A DNA stretch of 50,627 bases from Dehalococcoidia bacterium (GTDB taxonomy: Bacteria > Chloroflexota > Dehalococcoidia > Lucifugimonadales > UBA3495). Within the stretch, counting starts at the first letter, position 1; each line of letters starts with the position of its first letter. The stretch covers positions 1 to 50,627 of the forward strand of contig JASLXV010000030.1 of NCBI GenBank assembly GCA_030740155.1, read 5' to 3'. This document shows, one piece after another, positions 21,927 through 29,991 of this stretch. The notes beneath the pieces are model-generated. The model had not been told where the DNA came from, searched no databases, and saw only the letters and a program-made list of their open reading frames with translations. The translations under genes and the position numbers were made by a program.

Positions 21927-22021
21927 GCGGGAGCGCCGACGGTCCGGGGCGGCCTTGCCGGTGTACTGTCTTGTGGATAGCTTTACATTGGCAAGATTAG
22001 GCGACATCCCCTCTCCCGCAA

Positions 22022-22090
22022 CCGTCTTTCCGGCGAAGGCCGGAACCCAGAGGTGCGGGGACTGGATCCCGGCTTTCACCGGGATGACGG
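22022..22090. repeat. REP-like palindromic element, copy 1
   Basis: CCGTCTTTCCGGCGAAGGCCGGAACCCAG-N11-CTGGATCCCGGCTTTCACCGGGATGACGG, a long imperfect hairpin. Confidence 0.8.
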
Positions 22091-22151
22091 ATCGGGTACC
22101 GAACTGGGTACGAGACACCAGCCTAGGCGGTCTCCCGCGTCACCCAGACGA

Positions 22152-22220
22152 CCGTCTTTCCGGCGAAGGCCGGAATCCAGTGAAGCGCCGGCTGAGCCCC
22201 GGCCTTCGCCGGGATGACGG
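22152..22220. repeat. REP-like palindromic element, copy 2
   Basis: CCGTCTTTCCGGCGAAGGCCGGAATCCAG-N11-CTGAGCCCCGGCCTTCGCCGGGATGACGG, offset exactly 130 nt from copy 1. Confidence 0.8.
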
Positions 22221-22368
22221 AGCGGGTAGCAACCCATTTACGAGAGACCAGTACTCAATCAAGCTGGTTCTTGAGAAGTATCGGCCAGAATGATAGCTAT
22301 CATCATTGAGTGGACTGAGTTACGGACTCGGGCACAGGCGATATGGTGCGGTCAATGCCGGCTATAAG

Positions 22369-23811: not shown

Positions 23812-25521
23812 GTGAGTGCTTGGATCGGCTACCTGGGTCCGGCGAATGCAGGAGAACTGCGGGGGGTTCTGGGCGCCGGCGCCCAAAGTGATGCCGGCGA
23901 CAATGGCACGAGCCATGATACCCGGTGTTACTCGCGGGAAGGCTTCGGGCTCGGGATTACCGGCGGCGCCGGTGAACCCGCCGAGCTTGCCACGGGTCCC
24001 CCCGGAACTGTCACCGCACGAGTAGGTTCTGACGCTGAAGCCGGATGCTCGGCTTCATTCAACTTCAAATTCGACGGCAACAGCGACCCCAACGGCACGA
24101 CGATTACCCTCGCGTGCGACCCCTTTGGATTTCACGAGGTATTCATCGCGCGCGTGGGCTCTGTTCTCTGGTTCGCCTCCGACCTGCGGCTGATGCAAAG
24201 GCATCCGGATATCCCGAAAGTGCTGAGCCCCCAAGCGATACACGGTTACCTTTGCTTTTCCTACGTACCGACCCCGCTCGCGATTGTCGATGGTATCGAA
24301 AAGCTCCCCTCCGGAAGCCGAAGGAGATTTTGCGCCTCCGGTGAGGGGAGATCAGATGGCTCGGCTAACTGGCATGAGCATCAGCATCAGAACATCGATC
24401 AGGAAGAGGCCGTCATTACCTTGCGCGGTCTGCTCCGAGACTCGGTTGCCCGCCGATTGGGCGATGAGCGGGAAGTCGGAGTGTTTCTATCCGGTGGATT
24501 GGACAGCAGCCTCATCGCTGCGTTACTGGTTGACCTCGGTGTGAAGGTCCACCTTTATACACTCGACTTCGGACCTCCTTTTGATGTGGAACTGCCTGTG
24601 GCCAAACAGGTGGCGACGCATTTGGGACGGGAATTGAACATCGTGCCGGCGCACCCCGCTCAAATAGAGGCAGCGTTGGCCCCGACGGCGGCTGCCCTGT
24701 CCCAGCCTTTTGGCGACGGTGTCACCGTCCCGATATTCTTGCTCGGACAGGAAGCCGCCGGGCGAGCGGGCACGATATTCAATGGCGAAGGAGGAGATCA
24801 GCTTCTTGGTGGCTGGACCAGCAAGCCCATGATTGCCGCGGAACTCTACGGGGGAACTGGCTAAGACCGGGAGCAAGCTTATCTTAACACCTACCATCGC
24901 TTCTTTGGCCTCACAGACCAAATGTACACCGAGCAGGCGCACCGCATGGCCGGGCCGGCCGACCCGGGCCATTGGGTAAGGGACGCGCTGAACGCTGAGG
25001 GATTCTCAACCCTGCTACACCGTTTGCGGGCGGTCAATTTGTGGCTGAAGGGGGCACAGAACATCCTTCCCCGCGCCACACTGTTGGCTGATGCCCACGG
25101 CCTTCGGGTGCACTCGCCATTTTTCGACCGGGCTCTCACCGAGTGGACTTTCGGCCTGCCATCGGGATTGCTGCTCCAGGGTGCGTGCGAGAAGTATCTG
25201 CTCAAGAAGGCCGCCGAACCGTACCTTCCTCCGGAGGTGGTCTGGCGGGAAAAGCGCGGCATGGGCGTGCCCACGACCCAGTGGTGCCTTGGGCCATTGA
25301 AGCGAGAGTTAAAGCGCAGGCTGTCGCCCAGTCGCCTAAAGCGGGACGGATGGTTCAATCCGGCGACCATCAAAGAGCTGCGCCGGGGGAACGATGAGCC
25401 GGGGCAATACCGGTACCGGCGCGTGGGCGAGAAGCTAAGGGCGCTCTTGATGCTGCACACCTGGCTAGATACGCGGGAGAAGCCAGTCTCCTGGCCGTCC
25501 TCCGGCTCGAATGGAGGTTAA
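23812..25521 (+). pseudogene. Asparagine synthetase-like ATP pyrophosphatase no. 1, interrupted by an in-frame TAA at 24862-24864
   Basis: FLSGGLDSS PP-loop, NGEGGDQLLGG, then ELYGGTG*DREQAYLNTY continues in frame into SPFFD, EKYLLK, REKRGM. ORFs 23812..24864 and 24922..25521 share one frame. Confidence 0.85.
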
Positions 25522-25523
25522 TC

Positions 25524-26627
25524 ATGAAGTGCGTACACTGCGACCACGTCACGAAATACCCGGCACGTAGTGCTAACGGCGGGCAATGCGAAAAGTGTAA
25601 ACACAGATTCGGCTTTGAGCCCAAGACCGACCAGTACAAGATAGGAGACCCGTTTTTTGATCGTGCCATCCAGAACGTCTCTTCAGAGAACACCGTGTTT
25701 TTCACCCCACGTCAGTTGTGGTACGAGGTTGAGCGCCGCTTGCGGCGCCGGCGATTGAACGACGCCGGTGGAGTGTTTTACGGAATGGCGGTCGTTGCGG
25801 CTATTACAAGCGGGTTCATTGCCTTGGGGTCGTCGAGCGTTATCCCCTTCCTCGTTGGCCTTGGGGCGGCGGCCCTGCTGGTAGGTGCCGGGGTAGCTGT
25901 CAGCAGCATTTCGAAGCGCCGCACACCCCGTCCAGAGATGACGTATCCGACTTTTCGCGATTCCTACCAACGAACCTGGGAGCGCGCGCACGGCGTGATA
26001 GAGAAAATGGTGCCCCCCAACGGTGAACAGGCACTTCAGGCTCACGAGATTGATCCCGATACCACCTCTTGCAGTTTCGATAGAGCCTTGGCAACGGATA
26101 ACGCCGAGATTGCCGCGATGCTGGTGGCCAACAACTTCCACTTTGAGAACAACTGTGCCGTCCTCAGCGTGGACGGCTATCCCTTCGGGATCAAAGATAC
26201 GGTAATGACCATGCTTCGCCGGAACCCTGACCTCCAGGTGTTTGCTCTACACGATGCCTCGGCAGAAGGCTCCGCGCTTCCGCTGACGCTACGAAGTGAA
26301 GAGTGGTTTCCGGATACCAACGTGAAGGTCCTAGACCTGGGACTGAGCCCACGGCACGCCAAGGCCATGAGACTCTTCACAATTAGTGGTACGGAGCAAT
26401 ATCCTCCACCCGAGGTGCGGGAAGTGCTGACGGAGGTCGAATTGGCCTGGCTTCAGAAGGGATTGGTCGCGGAGGTTGCGGTGTTGCGACCGGCCCGCCT
26501 CATTCGGGCCATATACCAAGGTTTCGGCCGAGGGGCGGAGTTGGATACTTCCCAGGGCGGGCAAGAGTACGCGATGAGCGGCGGGTACTACCCAATATAT
26601 TTCGGCGACGACGACAGCTTCGGATAG
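25524..26627 (+). CDS. Uncharacterised membrane protein: Zn ribbon + TxRxxxY motif + 2 TM + Toprim-like domain
   Basis: CVHC...CEKC; FTPRQLWY; two hydrophobic helices; NCAVLSVDGYP...VFALHDASAEG...LDLGLSP; GGAGG RBS; 2-3 nt from both neighbouring genes. Confidence 0.8.
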   Translation: MKCVHCDHVTKYPARSANGGQCEKCKHRFGFEPKTDQYKIGDPFFDRAIQNVSSENTVFFTPRQLWYEVERRLRRRRLNDAGGVFYGMAVVAAITSGFIALGSSSVIPFLVGLGAAALLVGAGVAVSSISKRRTPRPEMTYPTFRDSYQRTWERAHGVIEKMVPPNGEQALQAHEIDPDTTSCSFDRALATDNAEIAAMLVANNFHFENNCAVLSVDGYPFGIKDTVMTMLRRNPDLQVFALHDASAEGSALPLTLRSEEWFPDTNVKVLDLGLSPRHAKAMRLFTISGTEQYPPPEVREVLTEVELAWLQKGLVAEVAVLRPARLIRAIYQGFGRGAELDTSQGGQEYAMSGGYYPIYFGDDDSFG

Positions 26628-28404: not shown

Positions 28405-29991
28405 GTGGAGTTCCAAAGACTGGCATTCGGTCTAGTAGTCGCATCTGCTCCTTTGCTCTTTGTCTCATGCTAAGGAGCGCCCACCCAACCGGCTGCGGAG
28501 CCGACAACCGCCTCTGCCGCCGTGCGGCCCACCCAGCCGGCGGTCTCGGCAACCGCCGCGCCGGCTTTGAGGATCAACCCTTCGTCCAGTCCCATGGCAT
28601 CGCCCGCTGCAACAAGTACGCCGGAGCACGCGCCTGCAAGAGGCAATTCGCCAGCTTCAATCGATAGCACCCAACCCCCACCATCGCCTCAGCCGGGCAC
28701 CGCGAATCCTACCGGCGAACCCCACAATGCGGCAACGCAACCGGCCGACAGTACCGGGCAGGCGCAAACCTCTGTATTCTATGAACTGAACGGTTTAACG
28801 CTTGAATATTATTGGCCGCTCGGGGATGGGAGCAATCTCTCCGCGGACGAGACGGAAATACTTGCCTACAACGAAGGCGGCGCGGCCATTGAATTCTTGG
28901 CGCCGCGGATAACGTTCACGGAGAACGGAAGCCCACGGGCGCAATCCAGCGGCACCTGGGAACGGTATCCCTCTCGCTTCAGTTAGGACCGAATCGAATT
29001 CATATCGATCCCGCCCTCCTCCTACCAGGGAGAGCCCTTGCTCTTGCGGCCCGGCGAGAAAGCAAAAATACATTGGCATCTGGAAAGCGTCACCTCGGCA
29101 GTGACCAACCAGTCTATCGCCCTCGACCTCACAGTTATTACCGGTGCCCGTACCGACACCATCACCCAAACCCTCGTCCGGGAATCAGATCGGCCCGGTA
29201 CCAGTACCGGTACCGCCATCGCAACCACGCCCGTTCCCACTTGGCCCGTACCCACTCAGGAACCCCAGGAAACGCCGCCGAGTGCACCCGGTGACACCCA
29301 TGGGGACACATCCGACGCCGCATCAGATGTACGATGGTCGTTCAGCGGGACGGCCTGGTCGCCGACCGGCCCGCCGCCAGATTGCGCGGAGCCCTTCGTC
29401 TTGCGGACACCAGTTGACATAGGTATGGTAACCATGGCGTTGTGGCCCGGCCAGGTACGCGGCGCCTACGTTGCCCATGGCGGGTTCCGCTTTGATGCCG
29501 GCGCCGGCAATAAGGTCACGGTTCGCGCTCCGGCCGGCGCACACTTGGTGCAAGCAAGCCAATACTTGGAGAGCGGCGAGAACCAGTACTTGCTGTTTTT
29601 CTCGGTGCCCTGCGGGTTTTTCTATCGCTTCGATCACGTGATCGTGGTGTCCCCAATAATCTCCGAGGCGCTCAAGGACCTGCCGCCGGCCACCTCCGGG
29701 GACAGCAGAACGACTTATATCAACCCTCCGTTGTGGGTAGAACAAGGAGAAGTCGTCGGTACTTCGGTTGGGATTCCTCCGTCGAATATCTTCGTCGATT
29801 TTGGCCTGTACGACGTGCGCACTCCAAACAACGTCACACCGAACCCGGCCTGGGCTGATATCTATGCCGGCGATAAGGAATTCGGGCACTTCGGAGTATG
29901 CTTCTTTGACTACCTTCCCGGAGACCACGGCGAGTTGATGCGCGCCTTCCCCACCGGGAAAGAAGGTAAAACAAGTGATTATTGCGAGTAG
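28405..29991 (+). pseudogene. Lipoprotein with Pro/Thr-rich linkers and a C-terminal M23/hybrid-motif-like domain; two in-frame stops (TAA 28471-28473, TAG 28984-28986)
   Basis: GTG 28405 gives MEFQRLAFGLVVASAPLLFVSC*GAPTQPA (lipobox-like). One frame continues through ORFs 28522..28986 and 29038..29991 (SRFS*DRIEFISIPP). C-terminal HGGFRFD...VRAPAG...RFDHV...GEVVG. Confidence 0.75.

Follow-up and report, generated by a model that had tools for sequence, protein, structure and literature searches.

A membrane-anchored homolog of the topoisomerase VI/VIII A subunit encoded beside glutaminase-less asparagine-synthetase-like ligases

Why would a protein of topoisomerase VI descent carry a predicted membrane hairpin and be encoded between two asparagine-synthetase-like genes? 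This arrangement is found in the window, by which we mean the whole stretch of 50,627 nucleotides analysed here, from a contig of a Dehalococcoidia bacterium. The three genes are tightly packed: the central reading frame starts 2 bases past the stop codon of the preceding gene and ends 3 bases ahead of the next start codon (Table 1). An initial annotation had read its product as a repurposed, possibly catalytically altered Toprim protein. From that reading we keep the membrane tether, the altered catalytic site and the place in the TopoVI-A/Spo11/Topo VIII structural family, but not the tyrosine and acidic residues as the functional core. The D-S-F-G tail of the protein and its tight tie to the flanking ligases, which are the strongest functional clues, had been missed.

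Table 1. Coordinates of the central gene, the parts of its product and the flanking ligase genes in the window.
Feature	Position	Strand	Basis
AsnB1, upstream asparagine-synthetase-like gene, no N-terminal Cys	23812..25521	+	PF00733, split across two pieces by in-frame TAA 24862-24864
GGAGG, ribosome-binding-site-like	25513..25517	+	Sequence; overlaps the end of AsnB1
ORF of TopoVI-A-like membrane-tethered protein, 367 aa	25524..26627	+	Sequence, translation; 994 homologs among 8000 scored candidates
N-terminal CxxC...CxxC ribbon (C3, C6, C22, C25)	25524..25622	+	All four Cys conserved in 111/111
Putative winged-helix (5Y-CAP-like) helices 1 and 2, including R63 and Tyr67	25641..25754	+	Profile alignment with IKAAAF..RQVMY in Topo VIII-like proteins
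Predicted transmembrane hairpin, residues 83-101 and 106-124	25770..25895	+	Hydropathy; model helices 62-102 and 107-131
Probable winged-helix helix 3, residues 141-156	25944..25991	+	Register with third helix of Topo VIII-like profile, TM columns omitted; weak alone
TopoVI-A-type Toprim domain, residues 184-335	26073..26528	+	PF21180 in family, structure matches, profile alignment
Flexible Gly/Asp-rich, Lys-free tail ending D364-S-F366-G367	26535..26624	+	Homolog tails; pLDDT <50 at 361-367
AsnB2, downstream asparagine-synthetase-like ligase, 559 aa	26631..28310	+	PF00733, PF13537; near-constant partner

The 367-residue protein shows true homology to the A subunit of topoisomerase VI/VIII. 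On its own it has no significant match in Pfam, NCBIfam, PADLOC or the sequences of the PDB, and PF21180 (TOP6A-Spo11_Toprim) does not hit it at E ≤ 0.01. The same PF21180 profile matches 55 of 111 family members at this threshold (best E 2.6e-6) and is found on 18% of the members of the nearest ESM Atlas cluster, which lies at 0.97 and is possibly the protein's own. The best 120 of its homologs are mostly full length and share 39–64% identity, with one near-identical entry standing apart from this range. Longer fused forms were absent among 8000 candidates of 726–2070 amino acids, which is weak evidence.

An AlphaFold2 model of the window protein (pLDDT 89.6, pTM 0.88) was compared with known structures; a relative folded without an alignment reached a pLDDT of 33 and was discarded. 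The top six Foldseek rows are all TopoVI-A (best E 1.4e-3, probability 1.00, none with E ≤ 0.001). TopoVI-A 1d3y is likewise the top match in VIA-align (Z 11.4, r.m.s.d. 3.9 over 159 residues), ahead of JetD/MksG 8b7f (Z 9.5, r.m.s.d. 3.7 over 140 residues) and two further TopoVI-A chains (Z 9.5 and 9.4), while Spo11 8uru appears amid unrelated rows at Z 7.3. These structural matches span the Toprim domain alone (about residues 165–359). When the family profile is run against PDB sequences, 1d3y is reached only at E = 1. The segments picked out by eye in the initial annotation as parallels to this fold, NCAVLSVDGYP (210–220), VFALHDASAEG (239–249) and LDLGLSP (270–276), are all in place, and the resemblance that they pointed to exceeds chance, with TopoVI-A fitting better than JetD/MksG.

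The winged-helix part is seen in sequence profiles. As a control we used an intact Topo VIII-like protein from the same phylum with 120 homologs, i.e. 121 sequences of 51–62% identity. A profile–profile alignment joins the family to this set with 95% probability (E 3.8e-8) and places RQLWY on RQ(I/V)MY. If the transmembrane columns are omitted, three helices fall into register with a score of 20.5, compared with 11.4 ± 2.4 for 40 column shuffles (maximum 17.5); the pairwise statistics of this alignment are E 0.003 and 10% probability. In the AlphaFold2 model the helices of this part run from residue 42 to 52 and from residue 62 onward. The winged-helix assignment is therefore suggestive, and the alignment of Tyr67 on the catalytic tyrosine is weaker evidence than the Toprim match. 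Because the three helices align once the transmembrane columns are dropped, the hairpin probably sits between winged-helix helices 2 and 3. Its two hydrophobic segments agree with the two helices described earlier between the tyrosine motif and the Toprim region, and basic residues lie on either flank; by hydropathy the relatives contain zero to four such segments. The four cysteines at the N-terminus, also noted earlier, are present in all 91 sequences of a second set, which was prefiltered for that pattern, and form a putative zinc binder.

Several observations concern relatives of these two groups. In Longimicrobium the protein occurs in tandem arrays of up to six Toprim-protein paralogs (L026:3147-10553; also L027, L032, L011 and L024), among which the membrane segments vary. 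In the nearest relatives of the window protein, P0008 and P0012, a ComEA-type helix-hairpin-helix (HhH) domain is inserted ahead of the Toprim domain. On the side of the control, L079:1-2220 (G056) and L080:1-2205 (G150) encode fused Topo VIII-like proteins with intact catalytic residues. Of 8000 candidates, 2947 are homologs of the A-part of these fusions; almost none of them is named, and many are about 410–430 residues long. A search for the Topo VIII-like control in viral contigs found nothing.

Does the family retain the DNA-cleavage site? In M. mazei TopoVI-A the functional residues are Tyr106, Arg102, Glu202/Asp254/Asp256 and Glu342 (PMC13040014). Their equivalents in the window protein are Tyr67, Arg63, Asp192/Asp244/Ser246 and Glu317. 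Tyr67 (TAC, 25722–25724) lies in the motif FTPRQLWY, as annotated, and the profiles put it in register with the catalytic tyrosine. Ser246 does replace the second Asp of DxD. The Toprim Glu had been thought absent; its position exists and is occupied by Asp192 (26097–26099), and the first Asp of DxD is Asp244 (26253–26255).

Among 104 family sequences the tyrosine position holds Tyr in 87, Phe in eight, Trp in three, His and Leu in two each, and Asp and Thr in one each (17 of 104 replaced), and whole clades carry Phe, Leu, His or Thr. At the Toprim Glu position, 80 sequences have Asp, 13 Glu, ten Gln and one Ala. The first Asp of DxD is kept in 81 (Asn in 22, Ala in one) and the second in a single sequence. 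The full triad of Glu and DxD is found in 0/104, and Tyr, Glu and first Asp occur jointly in 6/104. An Arg or Lys at the position of Arg63 precedes the tyrosine in 80/104. The T2BI/clasp Glu317 aligns with the Glu of RVELNAM and is Glu in 81 and Asp in nine of the 104. The Topo VIII-like control keeps each of the five positions in 121/121 sequences, although this is a narrower set (51–62% identity) than the family, and the Lys of its S-T-K-G loop aligns with Asp, Asn or Thr in the family of the window protein. The tyrosine and the first Asp, whose conservation mattered to the initial annotation, are thus common and neither is invariant. Loss of the second Asp (DxN) is by itself tolerated in SPO11-2 (PMC11302465); a literature search on mutants of Spo11 acidic residues gave no match.

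The tyrosine and acidic residues are therefore not conserved in the manner of catalytic residues. What the family conserves instead of the catalytic site is a new residue set: Ser184-Phe-Asp-Arg187, His206, Glu208, Cys211 and His243 are near-invariant and family-specific, and the four cysteines, Asp42, Trp309 and a terminal Phe-Gly are conserved as well. Since the full Glu and DxD set is found in none of the 104 sequences and the tyrosine is replaced in 17, the window protein is probably no topoisomerase. It resembles TopoVI-A, Spo11, Topo VIII and Mini-A (1d3y, 2zbk, 2q2e and 8uru) in its Toprim fold, the RxxxY motif, the Gly of DxDxxG and the clasp Glu, and perhaps in the order of winged helix and then Toprim, and differs from type IIB A subunits in this variable tyrosine and incomplete metal site. 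A TopoVI-type Toprim is also shared with Wadjet JetD/MksG (8b7f), from which the protein differs by its incomplete triad, its membrane anchor, the lack of a PADLOC match and the lack of recurring SMC/kleisin (JetABC) genes in 78 loci.

The second clue is the tail. Among the 120 listed homologs, 118 end in Phe-Gly and 115 have Asp or Glu at position −4, and the linker that precedes Phe-Gly is variable, Gly/Asp-rich and 11–69 residues long with only 0.2% Lys. Of the locus profile hits, 92/98 end in Phe-Gly; two of the others are cut by contig ends, one ends in DGLG and three belong to the six-copy array of L026, in which half of the tandem copies lack this end. The Asp at −4 is not invariant (G-G-F-G in L103, G-D-F-G in L094). 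For column counts, 90 locus sequences were prefiltered for the Phe-Gly end and the Cys pattern, so that tail counts from those column sets are not independent of the filter. Among 52,492 stop-to-stop frames, the window's genome has just two others with the same tail, both of them short and probably spurious.

The third clue is the neighbourhood. The protein was confirmed at 488 places in GTDB genomes, and the counts that follow refer to the best 78 of these. AsnB1 is present in 72 loci, AsnB2 in 67, both in 63 and at least one ligase in 76, several of the gaps being contig ends. Gene order, or the pairing with ligases, repeats in at least eight phyla as named by record titles. In many loci of cyanobacteria and acidobacteria AsnB2 is encoded on the opposite strand, and a few genomes carry it unlinked. 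Unrelated genes are lodged between the Toprim gene and a convergent AsnB2 in L073:9151-11073, L042, L058 and L064, including a gene for a TIR-domain protein in L073.

Both ligases resemble the AsnB superfamily in their ATP-pyrophosphatase synthetase motifs and, unlike asparagine synthetase B, have no N-terminal catalytic Cys. In the window AsnB2 begins M-S-G-F-V-G, with Ser at the position of the glutaminase Cys, and the other ligase begins V-S-A-W-I-G. The strict N-terminal Cys motif is found in 0/70 and 0/64 relatives of the two ligases; the AsnB2 relatives of L006, L009 and L012 do have a Cys in the first strand, yet it is internal. The synthetase motifs are intact: SGGxDS in 70/71 and 65/65 sequences, the Glu and Asp of GExGD in 71/71 and 65/65, and a downstream, C-terminal Lys in 71/71 and 64/65. 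We take these three elements to be catalytic in E. coli AsnB. Lasso-peptide cyclases also lack the glutaminase Cys, and against the NCBIfam lasso-cyclase model the ligases score 167 bits, far under the cut-off of 525 bits.

Other partners are optional. A diaminopimelate-decarboxylase-like PLP-fold protein is encoded in 35 of the 78 loci and a cupin in 27, never both. Two single-transmembrane proteins (33 or 23 loci) likewise never occur together; for one of them weak carbohydrate-binding-module look-alikes (0.80–0.82) give a lead only. An RCK/TrkA-N-type ion channel is found in 18/78. These optional genes were not found in the window's genome, except for an ordinary-looking decarboxylase match on another contig. 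In the decarboxylase-like family (L050:6770-7990 and 35 relatives) the Schiff-base Lys is replaced by Val and the catalytic Cys by Thr, each in 35/36 with one gap. The motifs for the PLP phosphate are kept, and the family alternates with a His-rich cupin. It thereby differs from diaminopimelate and ornithine decarboxylases. Neither a TopoVI-B, SMC or helicase partner recurs among the neighbours, nor, among neighbouring reading frames of at least 90 residues, a leader peptide, peptidase or RRE.

The tie between the protein and AsnB2 extends to whole genomes. In 151 cyanobacterial genomes the protein is present in 30 and AsnB2 in 31, with all 30 common to both; one of the 30 protein hits is cut by a contig end and the lone extra AsnB2 is split in two pieces. 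As cyanobacterial kin are not independent, this 30/30 co-occurrence is no statistical test. Where a tailed copy stands alone (L023), the two ligases are encoded at other places of the same genome. In one clade, four genomes contain the protein along with AsnB2, and a separate AsnB1 was found in none of them; this pair is therefore the core of the module.

In 121 genomes of Myxococcota, the phylum of L069, the protein is present in four and AsnB2 in three. The exception (G622, locus L112) encodes a clear homolog (99.3%) that keeps the ribbon, hairpin and Toprim domain and lacks the tail, SFDR and FHFENNC; the only AsnB frames found in its genome are three ordinary ones of about 640 residues. 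On a quick tree (40 chosen rows, midpoint-rooted for drawing, from which we name no donor), the branch of the tail-less lineage is very long and falls next to a tailed protein whose gene is linked to ligases. This case counts as one event, in draft genomes. Distant members of the family, further tail-less forms among them, are under-represented in the sample. The tail-less proteins of L112 (7301–8239), L119 and L120 are fast-evolving and mutually 73–75% identical, with L119 and L120 coming from metagenomes. An HNH-like frame, its motif recognized by eye, follows the tail-less homolog in L112 and L119.

Taken as a whole, the comparative evidence presents the protein as a membrane-anchored offshoot of the TopoVI/VIII A subunit that has probably lost DNA cutting and likely serves as a substrate-carrying scaffold for the adjacent ligase. 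In the specific version that we favour, at somewhat better than even confidence, AsnB2 with ATP would amidate or conjugate the carboxyl group of the Asp or the terminal Gly of the tail, with the topoisomerase fold as the membrane scaffold. Both soluble parts would be cytoplasmic, which we infer from the basic residues that flank the hairpin. AsnB2 would dock on the remodelled Toprim surface (SFDR, His206, Glu208 and Cys211) and adenylate the tail at the −4 Asp or the terminal Gly. Because AsnB2 lacks the glutaminase Cys, the amide would be formed with ammonia or an external amine in place of glutamine. AsnB1, where present, would make a second such bond. The optional PLP-fold protein or cupin could supply or sense the amine; without Schiff-base Lys and catalytic Cys, the PLP-fold partner is a doubtful amine source. 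The modified tail would then act as an envelope-linked signal or conjugate. Against this explanation, Tyr67, the preceding Arg/Lys, the first Asp and Glu317 are still common, beyond what a dead site would need. Moreover, the tail-less case is a single lineage, the −4 Asp varies and the two nearest relatives carry the HhH insert.

Chemistry of this kind has precedents. Peptide C-terminal carboxylates are amidated by TsrC and by ScdTA and converted to a nitrile by PesC (PMC13060819). As in those systems, a PF00733 ligase is encoded here next to a ribosomally made product in which a terminal or Asp carboxyl is available (PMC13060819). Unlike in the TsrC, ScdTA, PesC and lasso systems, the presumed substrate here is not a short precursor but forms the tail of a membrane protein of 360–440 residues, and unlike the glutaminase-less flanking ligases PesC can use glutamine. 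Our best guess, by analogy rather than by membership in such a family, is that the module resembles an AS-like peptide-terminus modification system in its workings. A second analogy is offered by PspA-linked operons, which combine a glutathionylspermidine-synthetase-like ligase, a potassium channel, DUF350 and DUF1190 and have a proposed role in envelope stress (PMC11237479). The likeness, an analogy only, lies in a peptide ligase combined with membrane proteins and a ligand-gated potassium channel. In those operons the ligase has an ATP-grasp fold and there is no Toprim protein ('toprim' and 'asparagine' occur zero times in that paper, PMC11237479), and conversely no PspA is found here.

An alternative that we consider unlikely, while still taking it seriously, is that the tail is no substrate and instead acts as a peptide for docking or activation, bringing the ligase to the membrane and turning it on, the product being a small-molecule amide or an amidated envelope polymer. 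All co-occurrence data fit this equally well, the terminal Phe-Gly is stricter than the −4 acid and the accessory genes resemble parts of a sensing device (single-transmembrane proteins, the RCK/TrkA-N channel, and the PLP-fold pseudo-enzyme or cupin). What speaks for a substrate is that the flexible linker, devoid of Lys, presents a −4 acid and a terminal Gly that is free, the very carboxyls that this enzyme family activates, and that no recurring genes for substrate synthesis or export were seen in the neighbourhoods of the loci.

It is quite improbable, in our view, that the protein has retained DNA binding and perhaps nicking activity at the membrane, based on Tyr67 and a two-acid metal site (Asp192 and Asp244, plus Glu317), as an effector of defence or DNA uptake licensed by the ligases. 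In favour of such a role, Tyr67, Arg63 and Glu317, in register with Tyr106, Arg102 and Glu342 of the M. mazei protein, are kept in about 80% of relatives. The HhH insertion in the nearest relatives and the JetD/MksG nuclease among the next-best fold matches would also suit it. So would the patchy spread and the paralog arrays, which are typical of conflict systems, and the HUP-fold QueC enzymes, by which partner proteins are reportedly modified in the defence systems qatABCD and type IV CBASS. The lack of any complete metal triad and the clades that swap the tyrosine argue against it, as does the hairpin, which breaks the DNA-binding winged helix directly after the tyrosine helix. A setting in defence islands is unsupported: apart from a weak QueC hit on AsnB1, PADLOC matches neither the protein nor its partners, and at 1e-10 it matches 4/112 sampled flanking proteins from 32 loci, two of the four belonging to families with housekeeping relatives. 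That the protein and the ligases are merely co-transferred neighbours with separate jobs is very improbable, since the frequent opposite-strand placement and occasional unlinking of AsnB2, which would favour it, are outweighed by a co-occurrence in genomes that persists without linkage (30/30, which largely refutes it) and by an order or pairing that recurs across phyla.

The favoured tail-modification reading concerns the family, and the copy in the window has a history of its own. The gene was found in none of 60 related genomes and its third-position GC (0.68–0.69) is below that of the two upstream genes (0.79–0.81) and not below that of the two downstream genes. On the grounds of this absence and the difference from the upstream genes, a recent import is likely. 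The in-frame TAA of AsnB1 is kept in sequencing run X13 and reads TAC in run X17 and in the divergent X16 contig. An assembly error as its origin was ruled out, since the TAA is retained in an independent run, with TAC in others. At position 25438 AsnB1 encodes Arg where at least 90% of relatives have Trp, and the divergent contig has a Trp codon. Runs X13 and X17 contain the variants L214P, M230T and D244N at near-invariant residues of the Toprim protein (listed positions 26164, 26212, 26253 and 26012), and X17 one low-depth insertion of 2 bases in its gene. At Gly30, Glu70, Cys183, Ala190 and Ser275 the window protein differs from the family, the only one of 111 to do so. Because of the AsnB1 stop, the population variants and these unique departures, the module is probably decaying in this species. 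In one RNA run three short contigs fall on the ligase genes and none on the Toprim-protein gene, so that transcription is neither shown nor excluded, and promoter and terminator scans stay at chance level.

Two further features of the window were noted. Between an enolase-family gene and an MFS transporter (22021–22251) there are two 101-nucleotide copies, 79% identical, of a palindromic, REP-like element. Positions 28522–29991 contain adjacent frames of 154 and 317 residues that have Pro/Thr-rich linkers. Neither frame is matched in Pfam or NCBIfam, and the two may represent a single secreted protein that has been interrupted.

The novelty lies in the module, for which the mechanism is a proposal, and its parts are known folds. 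A literature search for a module of a Toprim protein and an asparagine-synthetase-type enzyme found no description, most subscription journals being outside the search. To our knowledge the type IIB cleavage core (Topo VI, Spo11, Topo VIII, Mini-A and JetD) has been described as cutting DNA. Here that core appears converted into a membrane protein that is coupled, in many phyla, to an ATP-dependent amide ligase, and the module is present in about one fifth of the sampled cyanobacterial genomes (30/151). A more far-reaching possibility, which we put forward tentatively and rate below even, is that the Spo11/TopoVI-type core has become a membrane receptor-carrier. Its winged helix would be split by a variable transmembrane sensor and its Asp-x-Phe-Gly tag conjugated by the glutaminase-less ligases, with the paralog arrays representing different sensing specificities and the PLP pseudo-enzyme or cupin reading or supplying the amine. 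If so, this would be a new bacterial protein-tagging system. Should the modification of the tail itself prove true, a membrane protein would be seen to undergo a new kind of post-translational conjugation, and the Spo11 fold would gain a role that does not involve DNA.
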